Part shown: piece after piece, positions 8,828 through 44,231 of the stretch
Layout of the letters: the number at the start of each line of letters is the position of its first letter
Numbering within the stretch: position 1 is the stretch's first letter
DNA from: Sphingomonadales bacterium
GTDB lineage: Bacteria > Pseudomonadota > Alphaproteobacteria > Sphingomonadales > Sphingomonadaceae
Assembly (NCBI GenBank): GCA_027486895.1
Contig: JAIXOE010000028.1
Coordinates: 25,437-89,436, forward strand
DNA: 64,000 bases
Reading direction: 5' to 3'
The notes under the pieces: generated by a model
Told to the model about the DNA's origin: nothing
Seen by the model: only the letters and a program-made list of their open reading frames with translations
The model's database searches: none
Made by a program: the position numbers and the translations under genes

Positions 8828-9928
8828 ATGGGCTTTAAATGCGGTATCGTCGGACTTCCCAATGTTGGCAAGTCCACCCTGTTCAACGCACTGACCGAAA
8901 CGGCAGCAGCGCAAGCGGCGAACTATCCGTTCTGCACGATTGAACCCAATATCGGCAACGTAGCGGTCCCTGACCCGCGCTTGCAAACCATCGCCAAAAT
9001 CGGCGGCAGCCAAAAAATTATCGAAACCCAATTGGGCTTTGTCGACATCGCTGGCCTCGTGCGCGGCGCTTCAAAGGGCGAAGGCCTTGGCAACCAGTTT
9101 CTGGGCAACATTCGCGAAGTCGATGCCATCGTCCACGTGCTGCGCTGTTTCGAAGATGACGACATCCAGCATGTCGACAACAAGATTGACCCGATTTCAG
9201 ACGCAGAAACGGTGGAAACCGAATTGATGCTGTCCGATTTGGAAAGCCTTGAAAAGCGCGTGCCCAATCTCATCAAAAAAGGGACGCAGGGCGACAAGGA
9301 AGCCAAGATCAGCGCGGCGGTATTGAGCCGTGCGCTTGACCTGCTGCGCGAAGGCAAGCCAGCGCGCCTGACCAAGCGCGACGATGCCGAAGAAGAGCGG
9401 CATTTCCAAATGGCACAGCTTTTGACCGCAAAGCCGGTGCTGTATGTCTGCAACGTCGAAGAGGCGAGCGCTGCCAACGGCAATGCGCTGTCCGCACGCG
9501 TATTTGAAAAGGCGAAGGCCGAGGGCGCCGAAGCTGTTGTCGTATCTGCTGCCATCGAAGCTGAAATCTCCACCATGCCAGCCGAAGACCGCGAAGTGTT
9601 CTTGGAAGACCTTGGCTTGACCGAAACCGGCCTCGCCCGCGTCATCCGCGCTGGGTATGAATTGCTTCACCTCATCACCTTCTTCACTGTCGGCCCCAAA
9701 GAGGCGCGTGCGTGGACCATCCACCAAGGCGATACCGCCCCCAACGCAGCGGGCGCGATCCACAGCGATTTCGAAAAAGGCTTCATCCGCGCCGAAACCA
9801 TGGCCTATGACGACTATGTCCAGTACAATGGCGAAGCCGGCGCGAAGGAAGCGGGCAAATGGCGTTCGGAAGGCAAGGAATATCTCGTCAAAGACGGCGA
9901 TATCCTGTTGTTCCGGTTTAACGTCTGA
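8828..9928 (+). CDS. ychF: Redox-regulated ATPase YchF
   Basis: GIVGLPNVGKST, FVDIAGLVRGASKGEGLGNQFL and C-terminal DGDILLFRFNV. Confidence 0.98.
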   Translation: MGFKCGIVGLPNVGKSTLFNALTETAAAQAANYPFCTIEPNIGNVAVPDPRLQTIAKIGGSQKIIETQLGFVDIAGLVRGASKGEGLGNQFLGNIREVDAIVHVLRCFEDDDIQHVDNKIDPISDAETVETELMLSDLESLEKRVPNLIKKGTQGDKEAKISAAVLSRALDLLREGKPARLTKRDDAEEERHFQMAQLLTAKPVLYVCNVEEASAANGNALSARVFEKAKAEGAEAVVVSAAIEAEISTMPAEDREVFLEDLGLTETGLARVIRAGYELLHLITFFTVGPKEARAWTIHQGDTAPNAAGAIHSDFEKGFIRAETMAYDDYVQYNGEAGAKEAGKWRSEGKEYLVKDGDILLFRFNV

Positions 9929-9949
9929 GGCGGCACGGTAGCCCATCCG

Positions 9950-10026
9950 GTCACCCTGAACGCGTTTCAGGATCTTAATGTGTGACCCGTGGAGAAAGTA
10001 AGATGCTGAAACAAGTTCAGCATGAC
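9950..10026. repeat. REP-like extragenic inverted repeat
   Basis: 27-bp imperfect arms GTCACCCTGAACGCGTTTCAGGATCTT (9950-9976) and AAGATGCTGAAACAAGTTCAGCATGAC (10000-10026); each arm is itself internally palindromic. Confidence 0.7.
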
Positions 10027-10056
10027 GGTTGAAGATAAATAGGCTAACTACAAGCC

Positions 10057-10374
10057 ATGTTCCGCAACGTTTTCCTTGCGATATTTCTGTTCGCGCTGGC
10101 CCTGCCCGCGCTTGCGGTGCCCGCTGCGCCAGTAGCAGCGGCGCAAGCAATGGCTTCGGATTGCCACGGTATGCCAATGGACAGGCAAGACGACGATGCC
10201 GAAGAGCATGGCAAAGGCGTGCGGCTTCATGGCTGCATCGGCTGTATTGCCCCTGTTTCGCCAAGTTTTGCGGTATTTCAGTCGGCATCATTGCCGTCCA
10301 TCACGCAAAGCGCCCCGCTCAACGAACTCCTGGGCACTATCGCAAGGCCGACAATTCCCCCTCCGCGAAGCTGA
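10057..10374 (+). CDS. Small secreted CxxC / C-terminal polyproline protein (CutF/CruR-like leader candidate)
   Basis: Signal peptide, DC at residues 35-36, CIGC at 60-63, ends RPTIPPPRS; directly upstream of a His/Met-rich outer-membrane protein. Confidence 0.7.
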   Translation: MFRNVFLAIFLFALALPALAVPAAPVAAAQAMASDCHGMPMDRQDDDAEEHGKGVRLHGCIGCIAPVSPSFAVFQSASLPSITQSAPLNELLGTIARPTIPPPRS

Positions 10375-10419
10375 GATTTGAACGACCAATATTGTCATTC
10401 AATCTACAGGAATAATAAC

Positions 10420-11757
10420 ATGAAAATGCCGATTTTATGGGTGAGTGCCAACGCGCTTGCCCTTCACGCCGTCCCTGCCGTTGCGCAGGATCACAGCCAG
10501 ATGGACCATTCGCAGCACCAAGCCGCGCCTGCGTCAAAGTCTGAACCCGTTGACCATTCGAAGATGGACCATTCAAATATGGGTCATGACATGGCGGCGA
10601 CGTCTGCCAACACCGCCGAAAAGCCTGCCGAAGGCTCAGGCACTTCGCGCCTGCCCGGCAACGAAGGCGGCATGCATGGCCTTCACTTGCCTATTGCCAA
10701 GGACTGGATGGTCATGGCGCATGGCTATGCCTGGGGAGTCACCACAAGCCAGTCGGGGCCACGCGGTGACGACAAAACCTATGTCCAATCGATGGCGATG
10801 CTGACCGCCGAGCGCCAGTTCGAAGGCGGGCGGTTCCAGTTCAAATCGATGTTTAGCCTTGAGCCATTGATGTCCAATCGCGGCTATCCCAATCTGTTCG
10901 CGACTGGCGAAACGGCGGGTGGTGCGCCATTGGTCGACCGGCAGCATCCGCATGACTTGTTTATGGAACTCGCCGCGCGGGTAGATTTCGACATCGCACA
11001 AGACGCCAGCCTTTTCCTGTATGGCGGTCCGGTCGGCGAACCGGCTTTGGGGCCAAGCGCCTTCATGCACCGCGGGTCGGCCAAGCTGAACCCTGAGGCA
11101 CCGATCACCCACCATTGGTTCGACAGTAGTCACATCACTTATGGCTTTGCGACCGCAGGCATTTCCACACGGCAGTTCCAGCTGGAAGGCTCGGTGTTCA
11201 CGGGACGAGAGCCCGACGAAGACCGCTGGGATATTGAAAAGCCACGTTTCGATAGCTGGTCAGTCCGCGCGACATTCAACCCTTCCCCGGAATGGGCATT
11301 GCAAGTCAGCCACGGCTTTTTGAAACAACCTGAATTCACAATCCACCCCGACGAGAACGAGCATCGCACAACCGCAAGCGCGCATTATGCCAATGGCAAT
11401 GGCTTGACGGCGACCGCCGCGTTCTCGGCCAAAAACCGCGATCCCGGCCCAACGCTAACCGCTTATCTGGTTGAAGCGAATTGGGACATTGACGACCATC
11501 ACACCGTCTTTGGCCGCTTTGAAAATGTCAAAAATGACGAGCTGTTTCCCGATCATGACGATCCGCTGCATGAGGTTCCGTTTCGCGTCAGCAAGTTTCA
11601 GGCAGGCTACGCCTATCGGCTACCGCTCACTGGCCCGCTGAACCTCGCCTTGGGCGGGACAGTATCGACTTATGCAAAGCCCAACGCCTTGGACGCTGCT
11701 TACGGCAATAATCCGATGGGCTTCACGCTGTTCGCAAAGCTGTCATTGGGGCATTGA
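10420..11757 (+). CDS. Hypothetical outer-membrane beta-barrel protein with His/Met-rich N-terminus (putative metal porin)
   Basis: Signal peptide, DHSQMDHSQH and DHSKMDHSNMGHDM repeats, amphipathic beta-strand pattern, HPHDLFMEL motif. Confidence 0.65.
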   Translation: MKMPILWVSANALALHAVPAVAQDHSQMDHSQHQAAPASKSEPVDHSKMDHSNMGHDMAATSANTAEKPAEGSGTSRLPGNEGGMHGLHLPIAKDWMVMAHGYAWGVTTSQSGPRGDDKTYVQSMAMLTAERQFEGGRFQFKSMFSLEPLMSNRGYPNLFATGETAGGAPLVDRQHPHDLFMELAARVDFDIAQDASLFLYGGPVGEPALGPSAFMHRGSAKLNPEAPITHHWFDSSHITYGFATAGISTRQFQLEGSVFTGREPDEDRWDIEKPRFDSWSVRATFNPSPEWALQVSHGFLKQPEFTIHPDENEHRTTASAHYANGNGLTATAAFSAKNRDPGPTLTAYLVEANWDIDDHHTVFGRFENVKNDELFPDHDDPLHEVPFRVSKFQAGYAYRLPLTGPLNLALGGTVSTYAKPNALDAAYGNNPMGFTLFAKLSLGH

Positions 11758-11766
11758 TCTTGAACT

Positions 11767-11793
11767 CCTCCCCATCCACTTGCGATGGGGAGG
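11767..11793. terminator. Bidirectional hairpin between convergent genes
   Basis: Perfect 10-bp inverted repeat CCTCCCCATC / GATGGGGAGG with a 7-nt loop. Confidence 0.6.
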
Positions 11794-22628: not shown

Positions 22629-25514
22629 CTAAAGGCTCATTCCAATCGAGCGGGTCCGCTCGAACGACACAGACGCGGCAAGGTCGCGCGACAAATCGCG
22701 CCCCATGTCCTTGCCGAGACCAAGTTCCCGCGTCCGGTTGCGCAACAGCGATTCCACCTGTGGATCGCGTTCCAGACCTTTCGCCATGTCGGCCATGCGC
22801 CCCGCGATACGGCCTGCACCATTGTCATTGCCGCTCTGCTGCATCACCGCACGAGCCTGCCCTAGCCGCTGCCAGTCGTTCACGAAGCGGTCGGCTCGCT
22901 GCACAGGATCGGCGCGGATTTCAGACTCAAGCTGCATGGCGCGGATTGTGCCTCGGCTGCGGCCATCGGCTGCTTCGCGGGTGAGTTCAGGCTGTCGCTG
23001 CAAAGCGCTGGCAAGATCGGCGGCGGCATGGGGCCTAATCGCGTCGAGGGTCTTCCCGGCCTTGTCGAGCGCCTCGCGCTGATGAGGTAGCACCGGCAAT
23101 CCTTGCTCGCGCATCTGCGCCATATCGTCGGCGGCACGGGCAAAGCGTTCGACCGCACGGCGCTGGTTCGATAGGTTGGCCTGTTCGGTTGGCAGCGGTT
23201 CCAGCTTCTGCGCCTGCGGGCGGAAGCCCGCAAAGATGGATTTCGCACGCTCGGGCAATTGCCTTGCAATCTCCACAAGTCGTTCACGAAATGTGATCCC
23301 GCGCCGCTCGGCAAATCGCTGCTCGGGGCTGTAGTCGCTCGCCATGTCTTTGCCGCGCTCACGGCTGAGTGTGCGAACAAGCTTTGACTGATCGGCGAAG
23401 TCGTCGCGGCCATAATGCAGATCGACGCGCTGCCGGTGGCGCGACAACGCAACATAGGCACCGTGGCTGTCCATGCCGGGCGTCGCCAGAACATGCGCCC
23501 TGTCCACGGTCATGCCCTGCGCTTTGTGGATCGTGGCGGCGTAACCGTGATCGACATGCGCATAGTCCTTGGTGTCGAACGCGACGCTGCGGCCATCGTC
23601 GGTGCGCACCGCCATGCGCTGTGGCGTAACCTGCTCGACGATACCAAGCGTGCCATTCTTCACGCCAAGCCCGCGCTCGTTGCGGAGAAACATTATGCGG
23701 TCTCCGGACGCAAAGGCGCGTTCACCGCGCTCGGCTTTCACCGAGACATCGCCGCCCAACTCTCCACTCGCGCGCATCTTTCCGCGCGCCGCTTCATTAA
23801 GTTCGCGCACTTCGTCATTGGTGTGGGTGAGAATGATCCGCGTATCAGTTGGGAGAGCCTGACGGTCGCGATCCCAGCGCTCGATCAGGTCACTACGCGC
23901 GGCCTCGCGCGTCTCGGCAACATGCACCATCCCCCGCTCGTCATAAACCTGAACCGCAAGGCCGGGCCGCCCTGTCGCAAGGTGGCGTGTCGCATCCTGC
24001 TGCCAGCCTTTATGCTGGCGTCGCACTTCACTGATTTCGAAACCGCCATGCCGCTCATGGATGGCGCGGAACGCCGCTCCGGCTTCGATAGCCTGCAACT
24101 GTTGCGGGTCACCAACCAGCACGACTTTCGCGCCTGCATCGGCGGCGTGTGACAGGACGCGCTCCATCTGGCGCGTGCCGACCATGCCCGCCTCGTCGAT
24201 TACCAACACGTCGCGCGAAGTCAGTTGTTCGCGGCCCTGTCCCCATTGATATTCAAGGCTGGCAATGGTGCGCGAGGCAATACCCGAACCATGCTCAAGT
24301 CCCTCGGCGGCGATACCAGACAGGGCCGCACCGCGAACGGTGTAGCCCGCACTCTCCCAAGCCTCACGCGCGACGCCGAGCATCGCGCTCTTGCCGGTCC
24401 CGGCATAGCCGACAACGATACTCAGGCCGCGCCCGTCTGTAACATGCTCAAAGGCCGCGCGTTGCTCTCCCGATAGCACCAAGCCGCGCTCCTCGGCGCG
24501 CGTCAAAGCGTTCGCTTGGTCCTTCTCACCAACGCGATGCCGCTCTCGTTCTGCCATCAATTCGGATGCGCGCTGCAACCGCTGCTCGGTCTCGATCATG
24601 GCCCGCGAAGTGAACCGGTCTTCTCCGCGTCCGTCCTTGCCCAGCGCAATCAGGTCGGACGATGCGCGAACTGCACTTAGCGCCGCATCGAACTGCTCCT
24701 TCCCGTCGCTGTGCCGATGTACGAAAATGGCAAGGTCGCGGTTCGTGAAGGTGGCTTGGCTGTGCGTGATCGCATCGAGCGCGACACTGGGATTAGCAAT
24801 GATCCGCTCACCGTTGCGCTGTGCGACGGCGCGGTGTTCTTCGATCCGCTCGGCCTCAAGCCCGCGCTCGCCCATGCGAGAGGCGGCGGGGCCAATCTTG
24901 TCCTGCGGCTCCAGCTGAATGCCTTGCGCTTCTAAACTGCGGTGATCGACGCGGGCGTCGATATCGAGTTCGGCGAGCCGCTGATTAACATGCTCGGCCC
25001 AGCGCTCGCGCCACTGTTCCACCAACTCGGCCTTGTTCCACTCGCGCACCTTCGCGCCGAACCCGTCCTTGCCGACCTCGCGCATGGTCAGCATGACATG
25101 CGCGTGCGGTTTCGCCTGGCCGTCCTTGCCGATATCCCAATGCACGTTGAGATCGGCAATCATGCCCTTTTCAACGAACTCGGTCTTCACAAAGTCGCGG
25201 GCCAGCGCAATGCCTTGGCTCTTGTTCATCTCGCGCGGAATCGCAAACTCGACCTCGCGGGAAAGCTGCGCATCCTTTCGTTTCTCGGCGGCTTCGACCG
25301 CGTTCCAGAGTTTTTCGCGGTCGGCAAACTCGGGCGGCGCGCCCTCGGGCAGCATCACTTCAGAATGAACGACGCCGTCCTTGTTGGTGAAGTCGTGGTA
25401 GCGGTCGAGCCGCTCGTCGTGGAGACGCTCGGCTCCGCGATAGGCCGCTGCCGCCACAGCACTGCGCCCGCTGGCGCGGCTGATGACTTTGACCGAGAGA
25501 TGAAAGATTGCCAT
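22629..25514 (-). CDS. traA: Ti-type conjugative relaxase-helicase TraA (MOBQ)
   Basis: MAIFHLSVKVISR..AAAAYR catalytic Tyr, HWD..PHAH, helicase GYAGTGKS and DEAGM, HGYAATIHKAQG. Confidence 0.95.
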   Translation of the reverse strand: MAIFHLSVKVISRASGRSAVAAAAYRGAERLHDERLDRYHDFTNKDGVVHSEVMLPEGAPPEFADREKLWNAVEAAEKRKDAQLSREVEFAIPREMNKSQGIALARDFVKTEFVEKGMIADLNVHWDIGKDGQAKPHAHVMLTMREVGKDGFGAKVREWNKAELVEQWRERWAEHVNQRLAELDIDARVDHRSLEAQGIQLEPQDKIGPAASRMGERGLEAERIEEHRAVAQRNGERIIANPSVALDAITHSQATFTNRDLAIFVHRHSDGKEQFDAALSAVRASSDLIALGKDGRGEDRFTSRAMIETEQRLQRASELMAERERHRVGEKDQANALTRAEERGLVLSGEQRAAFEHVTDGRGLSIVVGYAGTGKSAMLGVAREAWESAGYTVRGAALSGIAAEGLEHGSGIASRTIASLEYQWGQGREQLTSRDVLVIDEAGMVGTRQMERVLSHAADAGAKVVLVGDPQQLQAIEAGAAFRAIHERHGGFEISEVRRQHKGWQQDATRHLATGRPGLAVQVYDERGMVHVAETREAARSDLIERWDRDRQALPTDTRIILTHTNDEVRELNEAARGKMRASGELGGDVSVKAERGERAFASGDRIMFLRNERGLGVKNGTLGIVEQVTPQRMAVRTDDGRSVAFDTKDYAHVDHGYAATIHKAQGMTVDRAHVLATPGMDSHGAYVALSRHRQRVDLHYGRDDFADQSKLVRTLSRERGKDMASDYSPEQRFAERRGITFRERLVEIARQLPERAKSIFAGFRPQAQKLEPLPTEQANLSNQRRAVERFARAADDMAQMREQGLPVLPHQREALDKAGKTLDAIRPHAAADLASALQRQPELTREAADGRSRGTIRAMQLESEIRADPVQRADRFVNDWQRLGQARAVMQQSGNDNGAGRIAGRMADMAKGLERDPQVESLLRNRTRELGLGKDMGRDLSRDLAASVSFERTRSIGMSL

Positions 25515-26861: not shown

Positions 26862-27782
26862 TCAGCGATGCAAACTCTCCTCATCGCCACACGGTTCGGT
26901 TTCGGTCTGGATTGTCGCATGATGAATGTTGAACTTGCTTTCGAGCATTTCAGCAAGAGCGCGTCGTATTGCTTCTGCATTGCCGCCTTCGGCTAATGCG
27001 ACATGGGCGGTCAGGCTCGCGTCGTCACCGGCAACCGACCATAAATGAAAATCATGAACGCCGGTAACGCCCTCGACTTCATTAATCGCCGAACGGATCG
27101 TTTGGAGGTCAAACCCGCGCGGCACGCCTTGCAGCAAAATATGCGTGGTATCGCGCAGCAAGGTCCAAGTGCGCGGCAGCACCCATAGGCCGATGGCGAT
27201 GGCAACGATGGGGTCGATCCAGTTTAGCTTCGTCACGTAAATCGCAATCGCCGCTCCGATCACGCCAATCGAACCGAGCATGTCGGCCCAGACTTCGAGA
27301 TAGGCACCCTTCACATTGAGGCTGTCATCTTTGCCGCCTGCAAGGATACGCATCGAAATAAGATTCACGATCAAGCCAAGGCTGGCAACTATGAGCATTC
27401 CCACAGACTCAACGGGCCTTGGGTCGAAAAAGCGCTGAACACCCTCAATCAACACATAGCCCGCGACCGCAAAGAGCAGAATGGCGTTGAAGGCGGCAGC
27501 CAGAATTTCAAAGCGACGATAGCCAAAGGTGCGTTTGTCGTCGGGCGGGCGCTGACCGATCTTTACCGCAGCAAGCGCAATGGCGAGCGCGGCGCTGTCG
27601 GTAAACATATGCGCCGCGTCGGAAAGCAACGCGAGGCTGTCAAATACAAACGCGCCAATTAACTCGGCGATTAGGAACGCCGTTGTTAGCCCGAGCGCGA
27701 TGGCGAGCCTTTTTGTGCTCGCTCCGGCACCGTGGTTATGTCCGGCATGACCGTCGCCGCCGTGATCGTGTGTCGCGCTCAT
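26862..27782 (-). CDS. czcD: CDF family Co/Zn/Cd transporter
   Basis: His-rich N-terminus, LSDAAHMFTD, RTFGYRRFEILAA, YLEVWADML, HDFHLW and HATIQTE. Confidence 0.9.
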   Translation of the reverse strand: MSATHDHGGDGHAGHNHGAGASTKRLAIALGLTTAFLIAELIGAFVFDSLALLSDAAHMFTDSAALAIALAAVKIGQRPPDDKRTFGYRRFEILAAAFNAILLFAVAGYVLIEGVQRFFDPRPVESVGMLIVASLGLIVNLISMRILAGGKDDSLNVKGAYLEVWADMLGSIGVIGAAIAIYVTKLNWIDPIVAIAIGLWVLPRTWTLLRDTTHILLQGVPRGFDLQTIRSAINEVEGVTGVHDFHLWSVAGDDASLTAHVALAEGGNAEAIRRALAEMLESKFNIHHATIQTETEPCGDEESLHR

Positions 27783-27839
27783 ATCAATGTGCCGCCTGTC
27801 CAATGAGTGCTTTTAACAAACCATGTTTCCTCTCCGCCG

Positions 27840-28236: not shown

Positions 28237-31425
<3,189 letters not shown>

Positions 31426-32664
31426 TCAATGGTCATGGCTCGCGCCCGACTTTTCGATGTCGGCGCGAATGAGAAATGCTCCCTTGGCGGCATAAGGCGT
31501 GCTGGGCTTGATGCCCGAAAGCACCTCGGTCCATTCGGGCGACTTGCGCCCGAGTTCCAACATGCGGACCTCGTAATCTTGACCGTAATTGGCAAAGACC
31601 ACCGTGAAGTCGCGGAAGCGTTGCAATGCTTCGGTGCGCACCGCTAGCGGCACCTGTACCGCGTTGATCGTCACACGGCCACGAAGCGCCATACCGGGAC
31701 GCAACCGTCCACCTCGATTGGGGACCGACGCCCGGACAAGCGCAGTGCCTGCTTCTGCATTGCCGTCGGGCAGATATTGGCCCAGCCGTGCCGCCGCGAT
31801 TGCGGTGCCTTCCATCGTTTCGATCTGCACGGCCATGCCGGGCTGGATTGCGCCCAAATCCTTGGGGAAGATGTTGAACACGACCGTCGTCTGCGCAGGG
31901 TCGGTGATGACATAGAGTGCGCGGTCGAAGGTCACATCGCCGGGGTTGCCATTGCGTTCGGCAACGACGCCGCTGACGGTCGAATAGACCGGATAGACTT
32001 GCAAGGACTCGCTCGACTCGATCCGCGCCAGCAATTGACCGCGCTTCACAGTGTCTCCGACCTGTTTTGTGACCGAGACAATCCGCCCCGGAAACTGGCC
32101 GCGAATCTCCGACCTTGCGGTCGTCGCCAACTGGACTGTCCCGTATAGCTCGCGCGTCTCACCGATGGTCGCAGGCCCCACAGTTTCAATCTCGATCCCG
32201 CCCGCCTTGGCAGCGTCAGCGGTAATCCGTGTGCGGCCTTCGGGGCTAGCATAACGCCAGACATGGCGTTTACCGTTCTCGACCGCGACAACTTCGACAT
32301 CGAAGCTGTGCGGTTCCTCGACCACGCCTTGACCAGTCAGATAGTCCTTCTCGGCCTTGAACGGGAACGTGTTGACCTCACCGCCCAGCCGCTTGAGCGT
32401 CACCGTCAGCTGCACGGTCTTTGCATCGACTGGTTTGCCGTCCTTTGTCGGATATATCCGGAACTGCGGCGGCACACCGTCCTCGAAGATGGTCATTTCA
32501 ACCGCGAAGTCGCCGTCCTTCAAAAGTCGGCCGTTGTGCGGCCCCTTCGCTGGTTCACCTTCCTCGCCATGCTCCTCGGCGGGCTCGCGGCTGCTACCGC
32601 AGGCTGCCAAGGGCGTGATGATAAAAAGCGCGACGGCAAGCCGCTTTATGATTGTCTTTTTCAT
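31426..32664 (-). CDS. czcB: RND periplasmic adaptor subunit
   Basis: Lipoprotein signal, GPHNGRLL N-terminal domain, lipoyl-like GDTVKRGQLL, ends SGASHDH. Confidence 0.9.
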   Translation of the reverse strand: MKKTIIKRLAVALFIITPLAACGSSREPAEEHGEEGEPAKGPHNGRLLKDGDFAVEMTIFEDGVPPQFRIYPTKDGKPVDAKTVQLTVTLKRLGGEVNTFPFKAEKDYLTGQGVVEEPHSFDVEVVAVENGKRHVWRYASPEGRTRITADAAKAGGIEIETVGPATIGETRELYGTVQLATTARSEIRGQFPGRIVSVTKQVGDTVKRGQLLARIESSESLQVYPVYSTVSGVVAERNGNPGDVTFDRALYVITDPAQTTVVFNIFPKDLGAIQPGMAVQIETMEGTAIAAARLGQYLPDGNAEAGTALVRASVPNRGGRLRPGMALRGRVTINAVQVPLAVRTEALQRFRDFTVVFANYGQDYEVRMLELGRKSPEWTEVLSGIKPSTPYAAKGAFLIRADIEKSGASHDH

Positions 32665-33899
32665 GGATTAGTCCCCCTGTCGGCAGCGGCGTCAAAGCGT
32701 CCGGTCAGCCGGTCAATTTCTGTTTGAAGGTCACGGTAGCGGATGACCGCATCGAGCCATTCGGCCTGCGCCTGAATGATCGCGTCGGCTGCACCCTGCA
32801 TGTCGCGGAAATTGAAGCCGCCGCGCGCATAGCCTTCGCGCACCTGCCGGAGCGCCTTGGTCGTCTGCGGATAGACTTCAAGGACGATGGCGTCGGCGCG
32901 GGCACGTGCGGCGTCGGCTTCGGCCCCAAGGCTAGCAAGACGGCGGAGCCGGTCAAGCCTTTGCCCTTCGGCGGTAAGCTCGATCCGAAGCTTCTCGGCT
33001 TGCGCCCGTGCGATATTGCCCTGATTGCGGTCGAAGCGTCCCAGCGGGATAGTCACGCCCGCAACCACCGCGACATCATTGGTCCCGCGAAGGAAGCGTG
33101 CGCCGCCGCTGAGCGTGTAATCCTGTCGCGTCCGAGTCTGTTCAACCGCCACTGCCGCCGAAGCCCGCGCAGCTGCTGCCTGAGCAAGCTCAGCGTCGGC
33201 AACCGCAAGCTGCCGTGCCGCTGGTATGCCGGATAACACCTCGCCCTCAGTCTCAACTTCTTCGGCTCTGCCATTCCAGAACGCAGCAAGTGCCGCGCGC
33301 GCGCCTTCGCGCCTCGCTTGCGCCTCGGTCAGATTGAGCCGCGCTTGCGTCACCCGCGCCGACGCGCTCGTCTCGACGAACAGCGGATCTTTATATCCGC
33401 GCACACGGCGCAATGCTTCCCGCTGCATTTCGACTTCGACACCAAGCCGCGTTTCCGCGATCTCGACAACATAGCCTGCGATCACAACGTCGAGAAACGC
33501 ACGCTGGACGGCGCTGACAAGTTCAAGCCGTGCGACCCGCGACGATGCTTGGGCAACGCCGATGTCACGTTCTGCATAGGCAACACGCGCGTCCCGTTTG
33601 CCACCGCGTTCAATCGTCTGGCTATAGGTGCCAGTGATCTCAGCTTGGCCAAAGACATTATAGGGTCCGCTGCCGATAAGGTTTTCGCCTTCGACGGTGA
33701 CGGTTGGGTTGGGGCGGACGCCCGCTTGGACTCGGCCAGCTTGTGCGGCAGCGACCGCCGCCTCATTGGCGCGGATCGACGGCGCGGCCTCAATGGCCTT
33801 GGCAATGGCTTCATCCAGCGTGAACGGCTCCGCAAAGGCAGCCGTAGCCGGAATGGCCAGCGCCGCCGCCAGCAAGGCGGTGCGCAATTTGGGAAACAT
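32661..33899 (-). CDS. czcC: TolC family outer-membrane factor
   Basis: Signal peptide, RPNPT, IERGGKR, IPLGRFDRNQGNI; first gene of the CBA cluster. Confidence 0.9.
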   Translation of the reverse strand: MFPKLRTALLAAALAIPATAAFAEPFTLDEAIAKAIEAAPSIRANEAAVAAAQAGRVQAGVRPNPTVTVEGENLIGSGPYNVFGQAEITGTYSQTIERGGKRDARVAYAERDIGVAQASSRVARLELVSAVQRAFLDVVIAGYVVEIAETRLGVEVEMQREALRRVRGYKDPLFVETSASARVTQARLNLTEAQARREGARAALAAFWNGRAEEVETEGEVLSGIPAARQLAVADAELAQAAAARASAAVAVEQTRTRQDYTLSGGARFLRGTNDVAVVAGVTIPLGRFDRNQGNIARAQAEKLRIELTAEGQRLDRLRRLASLGAEADAARARADAIVLEVYPQTTKALRQVREGYARGGFNFRDMQGAADAIIQAQAEWLDAVIRYRDLQTEIDRLTGRFDAAADRGTNP

Positions 33900-35850: not shown

Positions 35851-36258
35851 GTGAAAATCGGCGAACTCGCGAGTGCAACGGCAACCAAGGTCGAGACGGT
35901 GCGCTACTATGAAAAGATCGGCCTGCTGCCTCCGCCTGCGCGCACATCGGGGAATTACCGTGCCTATGGCAGCGAACATCTTGCCCGCCTGTCATTCATT
36001 CGCCGCGCGCGTGATCTCGGCTTCACGCTGGAAGCTGTGCGGGAATTGCTCACGCTGTCGGACGACAAGGCACAATCGTGCGAGGCAGTCGATGGCATCG
36101 CCCGCGTCCACCTCACCGAAATCGACCGCAAGGTTACTGATTTGACCGCGCTCCGCAACGAACTCGACCGTGTGATCGGCTCCTGCCGCCACGGGACGGT
36201 CGCCGATTGCAAAATCATCGAAACATTGGGGCCAAGAGTAAGAGCCAACATCGTTTAG
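35851..36258 (+). CDS. MerR family regulator, three Cys (CadR/PbrR-like)
   Basis: VETVRYYEKIGLL HTH; Cys in SCEAV and in C-x7-C (CRHGTVADC). Confidence 0.9.
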   Translation: MKIGELASATATKVETVRYYEKIGLLPPPARTSGNYRAYGSEHLARLSFIRRARDLGFTLEAVRELLTLSDDKAQSCEAVDGIARVHLTEIDRKVTDLTALRNELDRVIGSCRHGTVADCKIIETLGPRVRANIV

Positions 36259-37612: not shown

Positions 37613-38002
37613 TCAACTAGGTTCAAAGGCCTCGATAATCGGACATCGCCCATCGCCGCCCTCGGCACATTCATCCGCCAAGCGCCGAAGCGATTTTCGC
37701 GCGGACTGGAGTGCCGCAATTCTCTCGTCAATCTCAGCTATCCGCTTGTTTGCGAGTTCGCGCGCCCTCGCCCGGTCTTCGGTAGCGTCCAAGGCAAGCA
37801 GTTCGCCGATCTCTGCAAGCGTGAATCCTCCGGCCTGTGCCGCTCTGATAAAACGCAGACGGCTGACGTCAGTTTCGTCATACCGCCGAACCCCGCCGTT
37901 ACGTTCTGGCTCAACGAGCAGGCCTCGCCGCTGGTAAAAGCGGACGGTTTCGACGCCCACTCTGCCCGCCGCTGCCAATTTTCCTATCGTCATTGCATTC
38001 AT
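37613..38002 (-). CDS. MerR family regulator, two Cys (CueR-like loop)
   Basis: TIGKLAAAGRVGVETVRFYQRRGLL and C-x7-C (CAEGGDGRC); no Cys at the MerR C82-equivalent position. Confidence 0.88.
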   Translation of the reverse strand: MNAMTIGKLAAAGRVGVETVRFYQRRGLLVEPERNGGVRRYDETDVSRLRFIRAAQAGGFTLAEIGELLALDATEDRARARELANKRIAEIDERIAALQSARKSLRRLADECAEGGDGRCPIIEAFEPS

Positions 38003-38005
38003 CGC

Positions 38006-38037
38006 TTGACTCCGTACTATGCTACGGAACCTATATA
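38006..38037 (+). promoter_or_regulatory. MerR-type promoter/operator of mer-like sequence
   Basis: TTGACT, dyad TCCGTA-N6-TACGGA, extended 19-20 bp spacer to TATATA. Confidence 0.85.
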
Positions 38038-38072
38038 GGCTGGGTGACGTTATCTGCCAACAAGGAACACCT

Positions 38073-38849
38073 ATGACCCAAGCCGCAATTTCAACGCCAG
38101 CGAAAGCCAGTGCCGCCGCCAAAACCGCCACCATCTATCGCATGGTGATGCCGAACCATACCTGCCCTTATGGTCTGAAGGCGCTCGACCTGCTCAAGCG
38201 CAAGGGCTTTACTGTCGAGGACCGCTGGCTGACAGCGCGCGAAGAAACCGACGCGTTCAAAGCCAAGCACAACGTCCAGACGACACCGCAAATCTTCATC
38301 AGCGGCGAGCGTATCGGCGGACATGACGATCTCCGCCGCTACCTCGGCCTGTCAGTCGCCGATCCGAAGGCGACCACCTATCAGCCGGTCATAGCGCTGT
38401 TTTCAATGACCGCCTTGATGGCGCTGGCTGCGAGTTTCGCGGTCTATGGCTCGCCTTTCACCGGGCGCGCCGCCGAATGGTTCATCGCCTTCAGCATGAT
38501 CATCCTCGCGATGCTCAAGCTACAGAATGTCGACAAGTTTGCGACAATGTTCCTGAACTACGACCTGCTCGCGAAACGCTGGGTGCCTTACTCGCGCATC
38601 TATCCATTTGCCGAAGGGCTGGCTGGCGTCCTTATGGCGGCGGGCGCGCTCAACTGGCTGTCGATCCCGGTCGCTTTGTTTATTGGCGGCATTGGTGCGG
38701 CATCGGTATTCAAAGCGGTCTACATCGACAAGCGCGAGCTAAAATGCGCCTGCGTCGGTGGCGATAGCAATGTGCCGCTGGGCTTTGTCTCGCTCACCGA
38801 GAATGTGATGATGGTCGGGATGGCCATTTGGATGATTTTCGCACATTAA
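38073..38849 (+). CDS. Glutaredoxin-MauE/DoxX fusion membrane protein
   Basis: TCPYG and TTPQIFISGERIGG (Grx fold) followed by a TM region with YDLLAKRW and CACVGG. Confidence 0.82.
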   Translation: MTQAAISTPAKASAAAKTATIYRMVMPNHTCPYGLKALDLLKRKGFTVEDRWLTAREETDAFKAKHNVQTTPQIFISGERIGGHDDLRRYLGLSVADPKATTYQPVIALFSMTALMALAASFAVYGSPFTGRAAEWFIAFSMIILAMLKLQNVDKFATMFLNYDLLAKRWVPYSRIYPFAEGLAGVLMAAGALNWLSIPVALFIGGIGAASVFKAVYIDKRELKCACVGGDSNVPLGFVSLTENVMMVGMAIWMIFAH

Positions 38850-39163: not shown

Positions 39164-39592
39164 TTAATGCTTAGCAAATACGCTCGTTTTACCGGAACCG
39201 AAGGCAATGACGTTATAGCGGTCTGCCGGATATCCCGGCGCTTCCATGCCAGGCGAGCCTAAGGGCATACCAGCAACTGCTAGCCCACGGACACCTTTGG
39301 GCTTTGCTGCCAATACCCGCTTCATATCAGCGACGGGGACATGACCTTCGAAGGCCATGCCGTCGATAAGCGCGGTGTGGCATGATGCGAGGCCAGCAGG
39401 CAATCCGACCCGCCGTTGCAACGCCGGACGGTTCGCATCGTCGATGACTTTGACGCTGCGACCGAACGCCTTGCGGACTTGCGCGGCCCATTTTTCGCAG
39501 CAACCGCAGCCGGGATCACGGTGCATCACTGCCTCGCTTGCCGCCAACGCCGGTGTGGCAACGAGAGCTATTGCCAAAAAGAACTTTCGCAT
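39164..39592 (-). CDS. DUF411 metal-binding periplasmic protein
   Basis: HRDPGCGCCEKW, SCHTA, FEGHVP and GLAVAGMPLGSPGME. Confidence 0.92.
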   Translation of the reverse strand: MRKFFLAIALVATPALAASEAVMHRDPGCGCCEKWAAQVRKAFGRSVKVIDDANRPALQRRVGLPAGLASCHTALIDGMAFEGHVPVADMKRVLAAKPKGVRGLAVAGMPLGSPGMEAPGYPADRYNVIAFGSGKTSVFAKH

Positions 39593-39869: not shown

Positions 39870-40208
39870 TTATAGATTGAAAAAACAGTGCGCGCCGTGC
39901 CTTCGCGGAGGCGGGATTGGCGGTTTGAGTGCGCCGCCCGACAATTGCGCGCTGGCCGAAAGATTCGGGACCGCGATGACCCGCAAGAGCTGCGTTACGT
40001 CGGCGGTTGCCACGGGCGGAAAGGCACAGGCATGACACGAACGCGCCGCATCGCCACCTTTCTGTCCACCCTTTCCGTCACGATGATCGGGAATGTCCTC
40101 GCAATCCGCCATCATTGCGATTGTTTCTGTTTGAACAGGCGCGGCGCAAATCGGTGCTGCCCGCAGCACGAGCGCAATTGCGAGAAAACAGGCAGCGAGT
40201 ATTTTCAT
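39870..40208 (-). CDS. Small secreted CxxC / polyproline protein (CutF/CruR-like leader candidate)
   Basis: ATG 40208 (ATGA overlap with the PepSY gene), signal peptide, DC at 35-36, CHAC at 58-61, PPIPPPR at 96-102. Confidence 0.65.
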   Translation of the reverse strand: MKILAACFLAIALVLRAAPICAAPVQTETIAMMADCEDIPDHRDGKGGQKGGDAARSCHACAFPPVATADVTQLLRVIAVPNLSASAQLSGGALKPPIPPPRRHGAHCFFNL

Positions 40209-40927
40209 GCCGTGCGCCGCTTGCGCCGAAACGGCCAGCGGATGAACAGTAACACCGAGCCTGCAACGCCGAGGATCAGGCCTCCGATGGCAAATGCCAG
40301 CAGCCACCATGTGTTGAAATTCTCATGGTTCTTCCAATCCATGATGTGGAGGCTCCAGAAAAAATCATAGAGCCGCCATGTGCCGGTGCGAACGGCGGTG
40401 ATTTTCCCGGTATCGACGGCAACAAAAATACTGGTGGCATCGGGGTCAGCATAAGCGATACGCCACGCAGGCAGAGCAGCCCGATATTCAGGGCTTTCAG
40501 TCGTGACGCGCGATGCCTTGGAAACCGGCTTCTCGGCTGACTTCCACGCGGCATTCGCAATGGCCGTTGCTTGGGCGGCACCGACTGGCGGAATTAGCTC
40601 GCCTGTTTGGGCATCGAAGAGTTTGATGCCTTGGGCGGTCGTCACTTCCGCAACCGCGACACTTCCCATCATGTGCCAGTTGATAGCTTGGACCGGCGCT
40701 CCAGCCATTGCGTTTATCTGCGCCGGATCGGCGAACTTGATGCCTGCCGGAATGATCATCACCGTTTCACGGTCTACCAAATGCTCACCGCGCACCTTCT
40801 CGATGGGCAGGAAGCTCATAATTACGCCACTGGCGAACCAGATCAGCAACTGCGCGCCAATAACCAAAGCCAACCATTTGTGGATACGGCTTGCCGTTAG
40901 ATGGATACGGGTGCGTCTGCTGCTCAG
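40205..40927 (-). CDS. PepSY-associated TM helix protein (probable non-canonical CTG start)
   Basis: RIHKWLALVIGAQLLIWFASG and WRLYDFFWSLHIMD. The conserved HKW motif lies upstream of the track's TTG start at 40873. Confidence 0.78.
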   Translation of the reverse strand: MSSRRTRIHLTASRIHKWLALVIGAQLLIWFASGVIMSFLPIEKVRGEHLVDRETVMIIPAGIKFADPAQINAMAGAPVQAINWHMMGSVAVAEVTTAQGIKLFDAQTGELIPPVGAAQATAIANAAWKSAEKPVSKASRVTTESPEYRAALPAWRIAYADPDATSIFVAVDTGKITAVRTGTWRLYDFFWSLHIMDWKNHENFNTWWLLAFAIGGLILGVAGSVLLFIRWPFRRKRRTA

Positions 40928-41850
40928 AACCAGATCCTTATCCCTGCCACAAGGCTGATAGTTTCAGGATCTTCGCCTGAAGCCCGAGAAAAGCGCGCGG
41001 TTGCACCTGTCTGCTTGCGCCATTCCACGCCAATGTAGGGCGCTATTTCCTGCTCGATCTCATAGCGCAGGCGTAACCCGGCTTCGAAATCTGTCAATCC
41101 TGACCCGACACCAATAGCGCGAATGTCCTGAAAAGCGATATTGGCTTCGATCCTCGGCTGCAAAATCAGCGATTGGGTGATCCGCTGGTCGTATGATGCC
41201 TCCAGCCTCGCGCGCACCTCGCCCTTGTTCGAGACAAAGCCAGCCGCATTCATCTTGAACCAATAGGGGGCTATGCCCTCCACACCGGCGACAAGATAGG
41301 TGCGCGACGGGTCGGGCTTTATGTCATACCGGACACCGGCTTGCAGGTTCCAATAGGGCGCTATTGCGCGCGAATAGAGTGCTTGCAACTCCAGATCGTC
41401 AATGCGTTCACCGAATGCGCCTTCGCCTTCAAACTTCACCCCAAACCGGTTGATGTTACCGCCGGTAAAGGCCTCGCCTTCAAACCGGTAGCTTTCTTCA
41501 CCCTTTTGGAAGCCGACTTCGAGCAGGTCGATGGTCACCAACGAATAGCCCATGCCACCTACTTCATAAGCCAGCTCCTTGCGAGACTTTGCCATAATGT
41601 CAGCGCCAAATATCGCATCAGCCGCATGATCCTCTGGCGGGGCTGGCGCTGGCGCATTACCGACCTCGTCGCTCGGAGGCATTTCAGCCGCACTTGAACC
41701 CATGTCATGACCGGCATGGGGATCGTTTTCGGGAGGTGGCTTGGTAGGCTCGGCCTTGACGGCGGGCATGTCATGCCCCTGATGCCCCGATTGTGCGAAC
41801 GCGGGGGTTGCCAGCAATAATGCGGCAGGAAGCAGCAACAAGGTGTTCAT
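40924..41850 (-). CDS. copB: Copper resistance outer-membrane protein B
   Basis: His/Met-rich N-terminus, YSRAIAPYWNLQAGVR, GLRLRYEI..APYIGV, terminal WF. Confidence 0.93.
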   Translation of the reverse strand: MNTLLLLPAALLLATPAFAQSGHQGHDMPAVKAEPTKPPPENDPHAGHDMGSSAAEMPPSDEVGNAPAPAPPEDHAADAIFGADIMAKSRKELAYEVGGMGYSLVTIDLLEVGFQKGEESYRFEGEAFTGGNINRFGVKFEGEGAFGERIDDLELQALYSRAIAPYWNLQAGVRYDIKPDPSRTYLVAGVEGIAPYWFKMNAAGFVSNKGEVRARLEASYDQRITQSLILQPRIEANIAFQDIRAIGVGSGLTDFEAGLRLRYEIEQEIAPYIGVEWRKQTGATARFSRASGEDPETISLVAGIRIWF

Positions 41851-43622
41851 TGCCCTTCCTCTTCATGCCGCACAGTGACAACACGGAACATTCCAGCGTG
41901 CATGTGCATAAGCATATGGCAGTGGAACGCCCAGTCGCCCATCGCGTCCGCCGTGAAATCGAATGTCACCTTGGCACCCGGCAGTACGTTGACCACGTTC
42001 TTACGCGGATATCGCCCTTTCTGTCCGTTCACCACTTCGAAGAAATGGCCGTGCAGATGGATCGGGTGCGGCATCATGGTGTGGTTGATGAGGTTCACCC
42101 GCACCCGCTCATTGTGGCGGAACGGCAATGGCTCAGTCTTCTCGCTATATTTTTCGCCGTCCATCGACCACATATAGCGCTCCATATTGGCCGTAAGGTG
42201 GACGTCGATTTCACGCGATGGCGTACGCTGGTCGGGATTAGGTTCAAGCGCGCGGAGCTGGCTAAGCGTCAGCACGCGGTGCGGCACTTTCTCCAAACCG
42301 GTTGGCCGCTCGCTGTTCCGATCCAATGGCATCGGCGCAAGACTGGCTACACCCGGTCCCATCTTCACCTGCGGCGCGACCGACGGGTCACGCATGTTCA
42401 TAGAACTGTGATCCATGCTTCCCATTGCAGCCATTTCTTCCGGCATCATATTGCTATGGTCCATGCCTGCCATGTCGCCGCCACCGCTGCCATGATCCAT
42501 GCCCATGTCTTTCATGGTGAGCAAAGGACGTTCACGAAGCTCGGGTATTGGTGCGGTCATGCCCATTTGCGGAGCCAAAGTTGCGCGGCACTGGCCTGAA
42601 CGGTCAATCGATTCAGCGATAAATGCGTAAGGAATCGCTTCTTTAGGCTCAATGATCACGTCCCACGTTTCGGCAACCGCAATCTGGAACTCGTCGGTTT
42701 CAACAGGCGTTAGCGGCAGCCCATCCGACGCAACAATCGTCATCGGCAGGCCCGGAACGCGAATGTTGAAATTGCTCATCGCCGCTGCATTGATAATGCG
42801 CAGCCGCACCCGCTCGCCGGGTTTAAAAATGCCGGTCCAATTGCCCATGCTGTCATGGCCGTTGATCAGATAGTGATAATAAGCGCCGGTGACATCGGCG
42901 ATGTCGGTCGGGTCCATCAACATCTGGCCCCACATCATGCGTTCGGACAACGGCTGATCTTCGCCTTTGGCAAGGCCAGCAAAGGTCTGTTTACGCTTGT
43001 TGAAATAGCCTGCCTTCTGCTTCTGCTTGGTAAAGTTCACATGCGCGTGCGCGAAACTCCAGTCCGACAACACCAGGACATGTTCACGGTCATAAGCAAT
43101 CGGGTCTTTGCCCGCAGGATCGACGATCAACGCGCCATACATCCCCATCGCTTCCTGCATATGCGAATGGCTGTGATACCAATAGGTGCCGTGCTGCTTC
43201 ATCGGAAATTCGTAAGTGAAGCTCTCGCCGGGGCCGATGCCGGGATAGCTTACGCCGGGAACTCCATCCATGTGGAAAGGAAGCAGCATCCCATGCCAGT
43301 GAACCGACGTATCTTCGTCGAGCGTGTTGCGCACCACGAGCTTTACATTCTGGCCTTCACGCAGGCGAATGAGTGGTCCCGGTAGCGTCCCGTTGATGGT
43401 ATAGGCATGGCCGGTTTTCTTGCCGATCTTGAACGCCGATTGCCCGACGCTGACTTCGATATTATCGCCCGATAACATGCCGGGTTTACCGGCGAGGCTG
43501 TGCAACCCATGCGACCCACTTTTTGCCCAAGCGGGAAATAAAGGCGCAAGCGCCATCCCACCGCTCGCAAGCGCTGCACCGCGCAAAAGGTGTCGGCGAT
43601 CTACCGGAGTTTTCAGGGTCAT
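41847..43622 (-). CDS. copA: Copper resistance multicopper oxidase
   Basis: Tat signal DRRHLLRG; Cu motifs HWHG, WYHSH, HPIHLHGH and HCHMLMHMHAGM; Met-rich insert. Confidence 0.96.
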   Translation of the reverse strand: MTLKTPVDRRHLLRGAALASGGMALAPLFPAWAKSGSHGLHSLAGKPGMLSGDNIEVSVGQSAFKIGKKTGHAYTINGTLPGPLIRLREGQNVKLVVRNTLDEDTSVHWHGMLLPFHMDGVPGVSYPGIGPGESFTYEFPMKQHGTYWYHSHSHMQEAMGMYGALIVDPAGKDPIAYDREHVLVLSDWSFAHAHVNFTKQKQKAGYFNKRKQTFAGLAKGEDQPLSERMMWGQMLMDPTDIADVTGAYYHYLINGHDSMGNWTGIFKPGERVRLRIINAAAMSNFNIRVPGLPMTIVASDGLPLTPVETDEFQIAVAETWDVIIEPKEAIPYAFIAESIDRSGQCRATLAPQMGMTAPIPELRERPLLTMKDMGMDHGSGGGDMAGMDHSNMMPEEMAAMGSMDHSSMNMRDPSVAPQVKMGPGVASLAPMPLDRNSERPTGLEKVPHRVLTLSQLRALEPNPDQRTPSREIDVHLTANMERYMWSMDGEKYSEKTEPLPFRHNERVRVNLINHTMMPHPIHLHGHFFEVVNGQKGRYPRKNVVNVLPGAKVTFDFTADAMGDWAFHCHMLMHMHAGMFRVVTVRHEEEGQ

Positions 43623-43667
43623 AGGGAATCCATATTTAGGTGCTGACCATGATACGCAGGTCAAAGA

Positions 43668-44231
43668 CTAATCCCTCAATAATTCGTTCAAGCTTGCGCG
43701 CGCACGGTAAAGCCGGGTTTCGACGGTTTTCTCGGTAACGCCCAACGCTTCGGCAGCCTCGGCCTGCGACATGCCTTCTATAGCGCGCAGGATGAGCGCT
43801 TCTCGGAGTTTCAAGGGTAAGTAACCGATGGCAGCACTCACGCGGCCCAATTCTGCGCGGTCGCCTGCTTCTGTTTCGGGCGAAGCGCCGTCGCTTGCCA
43901 AGTCGAAGGCGTCTTCGATGGGCTGCGCACGGGTAAAGAAGGAACGCACCGCTCGCCGCCTTGCCCAATCGCGGCATTTGTTGATCGCAATTCGCGAAAT
44001 CCAGAGTTTGAAAGGCCGCTCGCGATCATATCGCTTCAACGCGGCGAAGGCTGAGACGAAACTCTCCTGCGTGACATCGAGCGCCTCTTCGCTATCGCGG
44101 ATTGTGTTGCGAACAAGCCGATATACTGGGTCTCGATAGCGCCGCAGGAACTCGCGATACGCTCGTTCCTGCCCACCGAGTGCGAGTGCCGCCAGCTCGC
44201 CATCGCTACACTGGCCTAAATCGAGGCTCAC
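43668..44231 (-). CDS. ECF sigma factor (CnrH-like)
   Basis: DVTQESFVSAF, WISRIAINKCRD and TVETRLYRAR; last gene of a Y-X-H-like triad. Confidence 0.9.
   Translation of the reverse strand: MSLDLGQCSDGELAALALGGQERAYREFLRRYRDPVYRLVRNTIRDSEEALDVTQESFVSAFAALKRYDRERPFKLWISRIAINKCRDWARRRAVRSFFTRAQPIEDAFDLASDGASPETEAGDRAELGRVSAAIGYLPLKLREALILRAIEGMSQAEAAEALGVTEKTVETRLYRARASLNELLRD

Follow-up and report, generated by a model that had tools for sequence, protein, structure and literature searches.

A CutF-like secreted leader upstream of an unannotated porin-like barrel gene in Sphingomonadales, a candidate copper-responsive unit

The leader and barrel genes

We analyzed a window of 64,000 nucleotides (nt) from contig JAIXOE010000028.1 (positions 25,437-89,436, forward strand; assembly GCA_027486895.1, Sphingomonadales bacterium), and all positions given below are those of the window. 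Two adjacent genes on the plus strand are considered here. The first is an open reading frame (ORF) at 10057-10374 (+) for a CutF-like/DUF2946-like secreted peptide of 105 amino acids (aa), hereafter the leader, and the second (10420-11757, +) encodes a 445-aa porin-like outer-membrane protein of an unannotated family, hereafter the barrel, as assigned from its ORF, its AlphaFold2 (AF2) model, and Foldseek. The leader stop and the barrel ATG (10420) are 45 nt apart. We took this ATG as the barrel start instead of the listed TTG at 10378 because the Shine-Dalgarno (SD) sequence and the signal peptide belong to the ATG.

By inspection, the leader opens with a Sec-type signal peptide (10057-10116, +; MFRNVFLAIFLFALALPALA, then VP) whose n-, h-, and c-regions end in ALA, and residues 2-20 form a helix in the AF2 model (predicted local distance difference test [pLDDT] 85-92). 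Two Cys/His motifs follow. The upstream, semi-conserved one is DCHGMP (residues 35-40; 10159-10176, +), which corresponds to the "semiconserved Cys" of DUF2946 (PMC9426467), and the second is HGCIGC (residues 58-63; 10228-10245, +), whose CxxC, CIGC (residues 60-63, nt 10234-10245), is a putative copper-binding motif. The ORF closes with PPPR (residues 101-104; 10357-10368, +), a putative ribosome-stalling site, one Ser codon, and the stop codon UGA (10372-10374, +); its last Pro lies 40 residues after its last Cys. Except for the signal-peptide helix, the AF2 model of the whole leader is unstructured (pLDDT 58, predicted template modelling score [pTM] 0.24). A promoter and terminator scan gave no convincing promoter for the leader.

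Homologs of the leader (n = 89) come from Sphingorhabdus and other Sphingomonadales, and almost all of them are 105 aa long. The signal peptide, HGCIGC, and PPPR are invariant in them, as are M1, R3, A65, P66, and P98, and the remaining positions vary freely. More specifically, F10, L14, A15, P17, and A18 of the signal peptide do not change, DCHG.P is at least 90% conserved, and HGCIGC is invariant in 29/29 sequences. When divergent leaders are included, lengths range from 97 to 135 aa; H37, C60, C63, and P102-P103 are invariant in all divergent leaders aligned (n = 25), and in 22 of 24 the last Pro follows the last Cys by 40-45 residues. Among close relatives, the Pro codons vary synonymously (CCC CCT CCG, CCC CCA CCG, CCG CCT CCG, and others) with the amino acids constant, which argues for selection on the peptide and not on the RNA. 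Judged by sequence conservation, the leader gene is genuine, is translated, and is under constraint. Family databases do not see it, i.e., Pfam and NCBIfam scans of the leader and barrel proteins gave no match, and a profile built from all leaders retrieves 193 proteins, none of which carries a Pfam annotation.

The mature barrel begins with QDHSQMDHSQHQ and runs on to DHSKMDHSNMGHDM, including QDHSQMDHSQ. This His/Met-rich tail (residues 23-71; 10486-10632, +; DHSQMDHS and DHSKMDHSNMGHDM) is predicted to be disordered (pLDDT <50 over residues 18-65), and His and Met make up 20% of it. In 63 family representatives, the median His+Met content is 16% in the tail vs 7% in the barrel, and by composition such a tail is a trait of the family. 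The AF2 model of the barrel (pLDDT 87.6, pTM 0.82) has residues 1-65 disordered and ~16 strands from about residue 88, with short turns on one side and long loops (146-180 and 207-239) on the other. The top 50 Foldseek matches in the PDB are all 16-stranded general porins (BpsOmp38, OmpF, OmpC, OmpK36, and Omp32), with probability 1.0, E values from 3e-12 to ~5e-10 for the leading ones, and target-normalised template modelling (TM) scores mostly of 0.6-0.68. The model, with its loops placed from the secondary-structure string, points to a 16-stranded porin fold with an inward third loop.

Two His-rich motifs sit in these long loops. QHPHD (residues 175-179; 10942-10956, +) lies between strands 137-145 and 181-193 (DSSP of the model), and HHWFDSSH (residues 231-238; 11110-11133, +) lies in the next long loop, the positional analogue of porin loop L3, where the model has a short helix (231-234) within the 207-239 loop. 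Comparison of 58 diverse homologs revealed no change at Q175, H176, H178, H231, H232, D235, or H238, and conservation of at least 90% at P177. By analogy with porins, we infer that the His residues of QHPHD and HHWxDSxH line the pore.

The family of the barrel is very large. More than 8000 homologs share words with it, all the named ones being "hypothetical protein" with occasional automatic UniRef labels of "porin" or "TonB-dependent receptor," and an exhaustive search gave 2681 clusters at 50% identity. A sequence-profile search of the PDB with the barrel gave no match; against the Pfam porin families, the window barrel had no match, and of its 58 relatives one had a weak match to Porin_4 and one to BBP2. 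A literature search on the barrel family and on its Brevundimonas locus tags found nothing. Membership in CopB/PcoB was considered and rejected, as PF05275 does not match the barrel at E <= 1. The window's own CopB (40924-41850) matches PF05275 at E 3.7e-82, and BLASTP aligns it to the barrel only over the His/Met tail (E 0.008).

An earlier sequence-only reading of the locus had proposed a 105-aa leader with CIGC at residues 60-63 and PPPR at 101-104, a 45-bp gap, and a barrel protein with DHSxMDHS repeats that would be a porin of an unstudied family. All of these features were found as described, the repeat being the QDHSQMDHSQ of the mature N-terminus, and the predicted fold together with the lack of Pfam, NCBIfam, and PDB sequence matches agrees with a porin fold in an unannotated family.

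To assess the linkage of the two genes, one genome per species was scanned for the leader pattern, which gave 27 loci, all in Sphingomonadales. A barrel homolog directly follows the leader in 26/26 of the loci with downstream sequence, the gap spans 26-53 nt across the 27 genomes, and the leader ends in PPPR, 1-7 residues, and the stop. In the reverse test, we took 63 loci of distant barrel homologs (40-65% identity, from metagenomes) for which 250 nt or more of upstream sequence were available. Of the 28 flagged loci, ~24 are credible: a short ORF for a secreted peptide immediately precedes the barrel homolog, contains a Cys motif, and has PP(P)R/K within a few codons of its stop (e.g., HGCIGCVPP...LRPPREA, CCLGCMPAP...HPPRSGV, CCVACVAAP...GPPRLLIA, and CECIAVL...LRPPRA). 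These distant leaders can scarcely be aligned with each other except at the invariant motif residues. The leader ORF and its pairing with the barrel exceed chance, as judged from sequence. In Brevundimonas, the pair stands alone amid housekeeping genes in a context unrelated to that of the window, and on the Sphingobium baderi plasmid NZ_CP128178 it lies within a metal-resistance region.

RNA structure between the leader and the barrel

The best site for an anti-SD duplex upstream of the barrel is CAGGAA (10407-10412, +; core AGGA 10408-10411), 7 nt before the ATG. A predicted hairpin at 10371-10409 (+) would bury part of this SD in its base; its 5' arm is 10371-10386 (CUGAGAUUUGAACGAC), its loop 10387-10393, and its 3' arm 10394-10409 (GUCAUUCAAUCUACAG). 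The minimum free energy (MFE) is -10.5 kcal/mol, with z = -2.5 vs shuffles. The three basal pairs join C-U-G (the last nt of the Ser codon and the UG of the stop) with C-A-G of the SD region, so that the leader stop codon is itself part of the hairpin base (in the MFE structure, U10372 pairs with A10408 and G10373 with C10407). Across 15 close relatives, the hairpin keeps its stems and has a hypervariable 7-nt loop, with few compensatory changes. The SD is computed to be unpaired with a probability of 0.003 in the free messenger RNA (mRNA) and of 0.147 once the footprint of a ribosome with Pro102 in its P site is held open.

Since a single alignment across clades is not structurally meaningful, we folded 48 leader-barrel loci singly, each with shuffles. 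Predicted structure starts 1-9 nt past the last Pro codon in 48/48 loci, with a mean z of -2.2 and with 33/48 loci below -1.64. The hairpins of other clades occupy the same position and are unrelated in sequence (e.g., GAAAUGUGA/UCACAUUUC, UGAAAUGCU/AGCAUUUCA, CGUCGC/GCGACG, and GCUCCC/GGGAGC), and strong GC stems occur in GC-rich genomes. UGA is the leader stop in 45/48 loci vs ~53% of the long ORFs in the same sequences, a count that is inflated by relatedness. We also observed that CCUGA at the leader stop pairs with the UCAGG flank of the SD in many of the 48 loci.

The sequence-only reading had instead placed a weak anti-SD pairing, ATTCC (10354-10358) with GGAAT (10409-10413), within the proline codons. 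Both strings are present, and only part of ATTCC falls in those codons, as it covers the Ile100 codon and 2 nt of Pro101. Such a pairing is at chance level, being found in 23-33% of dinucleotide shuffles, and it is kept in 2/14 close relatives (the window and its closest relative), the others having lost ATTCC through an ATA codon for Ile or a Leu in its place. We therefore reject this pairing; the conserved element is the stop-codon hairpin at 10371-10409. An Rfam scan of 9800-10600 gave no match, and thus none of the known riboswitches or leader RNAs lies there.

Copper in the gene context and a putative switch

Genes within 2.5 kb of distant barrel homologs were surveyed. This analysis uncovered copper-type P1B ATPases at 6 loci, MerR-family regulators at 5 (two pass the CueR equivalog cutoff, TIGR02044, and one is divergent, 193 nt upstream), CsoR-family repressors at 3 (two on the same strand, 120-153 nt upstream), CopC at 3, CopD at 3, and a glutaredoxin-MauE fusion at 4. 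CueR, CsoR, the CopA ATPase, CopC, and CopD adjoin barrel homologs that have no leader. On the Pontibacter akesuensis (Bacteroidota) plasmid NZ_CP014767 (locus L114, 4180-8667), an apparent operon runs from a copper P-type ATPase through a 151-aa Met-rich lipoprotein to the barrel, with a convergent gene for a four-helix-bundle copper-binding protein downstream. As these neighbors are all induced by copper excess, a copper-induced role of the barrel on the detoxification side is favored, and with it the polarity of CutF for the leader.

The window itself holds a paralogous CutF-like ORF (39870-40208, -) within its copA/copB cluster, which encodes 112 aa from MKIL... with ADCEDIP, SCHACAFPP, and IPPPRRHGAHCFFNL before the stop. 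By hhalign, it is a homolog of the chromosomal leaders (probability 96.7%, E 3e-10).

CutF of Rhodobacter capsulatus (cutFOG operon) has 118 aa, with a Sec signal peptide, C69xxxC73, and a C-terminus that reads P109EPEGPPPRL118; its nascent exported chain binds copper, which prolongs a stall at PPP, and changing PPP to PAP or Cys to Ala abolishes copper induction in each case (PMC8456105, PMC9973294, bioRxiv 10.1101/2025.02.05.636593). It is a translational, copper-on switch (PMC9973294). To the anatomy, conservation, synteny, predicted fold, and gene context established above for the window locus, we add, as proposals, copper binding, stalling, a direction of switching, and a transport function. 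We postulate that a copper-stabilized stall at PPP opens the stop-codon hairpin and unmasks the barrel SD, i.e., that a copper-on switch of the CutF type operates here, and we hold this to be somewhat more probable than all other explanations taken together. The leader and barrel are most likely a self-contained two-gene copper module whose first gene is a sensor that acts during its own synthesis.

In this mechanism, the signal peptide would direct the leader to the Sec translocon. With the ribosome at the PPP codons (10357-10365), HGCIGC would be ~40 residues behind the peptidyl-transferase centre and just beyond the exit tunnel, where copper on the Cys/His motifs would hinder the pull of translocation and turn the intrinsically slow PPP into a lasting stall. 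The parked ribosome would cover the mRNA to ~10375, the base of the hairpin (10371-10409) would melt, and the freed SD (10407-10412) would allow translation of the barrel. If copper is absent, the leader would be completed and released, the hairpin would re-form, and the barrel would stay off. The barrel would be a 16-stranded porin-like channel with a periplasmic Met/His tail that catches copper and with His-lined inner loops, and it would most likely pass copper across the outer membrane in the copper-stress response.

Several observations weigh against this mechanism. The covariation term of RNAalifold for the 15 close relatives is ~0; in GC-rich loci, the computed opening of the SD upon stalling is small and uninformative, and several of these loci have a hairpin that resembles an attenuator more than a mask of the SD. 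The first 20 nt past PPP pair with the SD in 30/48 loci vs 19.7 expected, a weak enrichment that is inflated by relatedness. The motif of the leader is CxxC, whereas that of CutF is CxxxC, and with 40 residues separating Cys from the peptidyl-transferase centre, the stall may occur before the motif has reached the periplasm. The leader has no match at E <= 1 to PF11162 (DUF2946; gathering score 23.7 bits). A bubble in which C exceeds G extends over 10254-10409 (C 33-37%, G 21-22%), as at the rut site of CruR, which leaves room for Rho. About 60% of the distant barrel homologs lack a leader, and in Sphingorhabdus profundilacus (locus L001, 5991-6001, syntenic from ychF to mutL) a 78%-identical barrel begins 9 nt past the ychF stop, where no leader is present. 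A leader need not accompany the barrel, and S. profundilacus is a natural leaderless control. The sequence-only reading required that the leader be conserved upstream of barrel homologs; every leader of the scanned Sphingomonadales with downstream sequence has the barrel behind it (26/26), and a leader precedes part of the distant barrel homologs (~24/63) and not the barrel of S. profundilacus. Finally, a search for RNA sequencing runs that contain the locus found none.

The best of the alternatives, which we regard as unlikely, gives the switch the opposite sign, as in CruR (Bp2923 of Bordetella pertussis, Pfam DUF2946), where CxxC and RAPP are 45 residues apart, the intergenic region is 162 nt long and unstructured, and copper relieves stalling, so that Rho terminates transcription and a downstream TonB-dependent transporter is turned off (PMC9426467). 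At the window locus, a default stall at PPP would shield a C-rich Rho site, and copper would relieve it, allowing Rho to terminate and shut off an uptake porin. A CxxC with an upstream semi-conserved Cys is exactly the DUF2946/CruR pattern, the C-over-G bubble resembles the rut region of cruR, and the CruR target is likewise an outer-membrane copper importer. Moreover, porins usually mediate influx. Yet the gap of the window is 45 nt and structured, its leader ends as CutF does (PPPR, one residue, stop) and not in RAPP, and its signal peptide is strongly conserved, whereas CruR works without one; in addition, the leaderless homologs adjoin genes induced by copper excess (CueR, CsoR, CopA, CopCD).

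Alternatively, the leader might persist in the periplasm as a stable partner of the barrel that binds copper, or as its chaperone, co-expressed with it and without a cis-regulatory role, as CutF was first interpreted (PMC8456105). Secretion, Cys/His motifs like those usual in copper chaperones, and a constant place beside the barrel would fit such a role. Nevertheless, the leader has no predicted fold, conservation covers only short motifs and their spacing, and neither the invariant PPPR right before the stop nor the hairpin positionally conserved at the stop codon would be explained; CutF and CruR, for their part, act in cis alone, and neither can be detected as a mature protein. On balance, we find this role improbable. 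Least credible is that the hairpin past PPP acts as an attenuator or stabilizer on transcription or mRNA stability instead of masking the SD, with the stalled ribosome preventing a terminator. This would suit some GC-rich loci (L033, L034, L038, and L108), where a strong GC stem is followed by U-rich sequence and the SD is untouched, as well as the weak enrichment of pairing between the SD and the stop region. In the window and its clade, the hairpin is weak (-10.5 kcal/mol), has no U-tract, and includes SD bases, and the output of the switch would be identical either way, a stall meaning on.

Returning to the CutF-type switch, the leader may represent a new, Pfam-invisible subfamily of CutF-like upstream ORFs for copper, one that combines the CxxC of CruR with the PPPR, one residue, and stop of CutF. 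The regulatory principle is already known, and the cargo family is unstudied. The locus adds a probable case to the CutF/CruR class, i.e., to copper sensors that work while being translated. Being a two-gene unit with no other regulator nearby and with leaderless relatives as controls, it suits the study of the link between a metal bound outside the ribosome and a stall within it.

To our knowledge, the passage of ionic copper across the outer membrane is poorly understood beyond a few TonB-dependent importers and CopB/PcoB. The links of the barrel family to copper, though circumstantial, are strong: four independent kinds of context, i.e., CutF-like leaders, CueR, CsoR, and operons with copper ATPases or CopCD, tie the family to the metal, which makes the barrel a concrete candidate for an outer-membrane copper channel. 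More speculatively, and with real doubt on our part, the barrel could found a very large unannotated family (~2,700 clusters at 50% identity, in Alphaproteobacteria and Bacteroidota) of metal-selective 16-stranded outer-membrane channels that have a His-lined constriction (QHPHD, HHWxDSxH) and a periplasmic Met/His tail for copper capture. Such channels might be the missing general route of copper out of or into the periplasm, placed in many lineages under their own membrane-spanning nascent-chain copper sensor with no transcription factor. If true, the leader and barrel would be a minimal autonomous sense-and-respond module.

Several further features surround the genes discussed above. After the barrel stop, a GC-rich 10-bp hairpin read from the sequence (CCTCCCCATC/GATGGGGAGG; 11767-11793, not assigned to a strand) likely marks the end of the two-gene unit, as a terminator shared with the convergent M28 peptidase gene that ends at 11805, downstream of it; a simple terminator scan missed this hairpin because it has no T-run. 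Between ychF and the leader, there are palindromes CCTGAAcgcgtTTCAGG and ATGCTGAAacaagTTCAGCAT at 9955-9971 and 10003-10023, and relatives (loci L002, L003, L005, and L007) carry ATCCTGAAacaagTTCAGGAT, in which a G/C swap on both arms preserves the palindrome. They could be the ychF terminator, a REP-like element, or an operator. On the S. baderi plasmid (locus L113, 4744-8862) and in locus L029, a MerR-family gene is divergent from a glutaredoxin-MauE fusion, and the leader-barrel unit follows; a gene for a 64-aa Cys-rich secreted protein (CCADAPCCKEGTDPCKDGKSCC) separates leader from barrel on the plasmid, with DUF305 after the barrel. In the window, a MerR and glutaredoxin-MauE pair of this type lies in the metal-resistance island (37613-38849) and not beside the chromosomal leader.

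This mobile-looking heavy-metal resistance island covers ~21800-44300, and only some of its genes were checked against Pfam. It includes a relaxase-like ORF (22629-25514), a CDF transporter (26862-27803), an RND/MFP/OMF efflux set (28237-33899), MerR-family genes (35851-36258 and 37613-38134), the glutaredoxin-MauE fusion (38019-38849), PepSY_TM (40205-40873), CopB (40924-41850), the multicopper oxidase CopA (41847-43664), and an ECF-sigma-like ORF (43668-44231). PepSY_TM lies upstream of the paralogous CutF-like ORF, and the stop of the former overlaps the ATG of the latter (ATGA); a DUF411 gene (39164-39592) lies 277 nt downstream of the ORF.

Comparison with known systems

The sequence-only reading had described both CutF and CruR as controlling translation of a downstream copper gene. 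This is correct for CutF (PMC9973294) and not for CruR, which acts through Rho-dependent transcription termination with copper as the off signal (PMC9426467); in outline, its interpretation of the locus is right and finds partial support here. Under the operational description of CutF-like proteins (PMC9973294), the window leader has fewer than 150 aa, PP in its last 15 residues, a signal peptide by inspection, a Cys motif, and a same-strand neighbor at short distance. It shares with CutF the small Sec-secreted peptide, the central Cys motif, the ending in PPPR, one residue, and the stop, the lack of a detectable fold, and a short intergenic region (PMC9973294), in the window with a predicted stem-loop that would touch the SD of the next gene. 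The distance from last Cys to last Pro is 43 residues in CutF (C73 to P116) and 49 in CruR. The target differs, being a Sec-exported porin-like barrel instead of a Tat-exported multicopper oxidase; no sequence match to CutF is detectable through Pfam, and the regulation of the barrel by the window leader is presumed.

With CruR, the leader has in common the CxxC with its upstream semi-conserved Cys, a Pro motif near the C-terminus at a constrained distance, a presumed target that is an outer-membrane barrel linked to copper, the C-over-G bubble in the 3' part of the ORF, and conservation confined to motifs and spacing, with no structure in the AF2 model of the leader. Three leaders of distant barrel homologs score 17-20 bits on PF11162 (E 0.001-0.009), under the cutoff. 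CruR differs in its RAPP ending, its 162-nt unstructured gap, its action via Rho with copper as off, its independence from a signal peptide, and its TonB-dependent target; there are 45 residues between CxxC and RAPP, and 37 between CxxC and PPPR in the window leader, and the two patterns resemble each other without being the same.

The barrel resembles CopB/PcoB (PF05275; PMC9210255) in its signal peptide, disordered His/Met-rich N-terminal tail, outer-membrane beta-barrel, and association with copper-resistance genes. There is no sequence relationship between the barrel domains, and that of the window is larger (~375 residues), like a 16-stranded porin, and has invariant His clusters in its inner loops. 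With the general diffusion porins (OmpF, OmpC, OmpK36, Omp32, and BpsOmp38), its best structural matches (Foldseek E 1e-11 to 1e-12), it shares the 16-strand topology, the short periplasmic turns, and the long helix-bearing third loop; it differs from them in sequence (~10% identity) and in having an N-terminal putative metal-binding tail, QHPHD, and HHWxDSxH. Lastly, the force-sensitive secretion monitors SecM, VemP, and MifM are likewise secreted leaders whose C-terminal arrest holds the ribosome and opens a stem-loop that masks the next SD; they sense translocon activity and not a metal, use other arrest motifs, and regulate Sec/YidC components.

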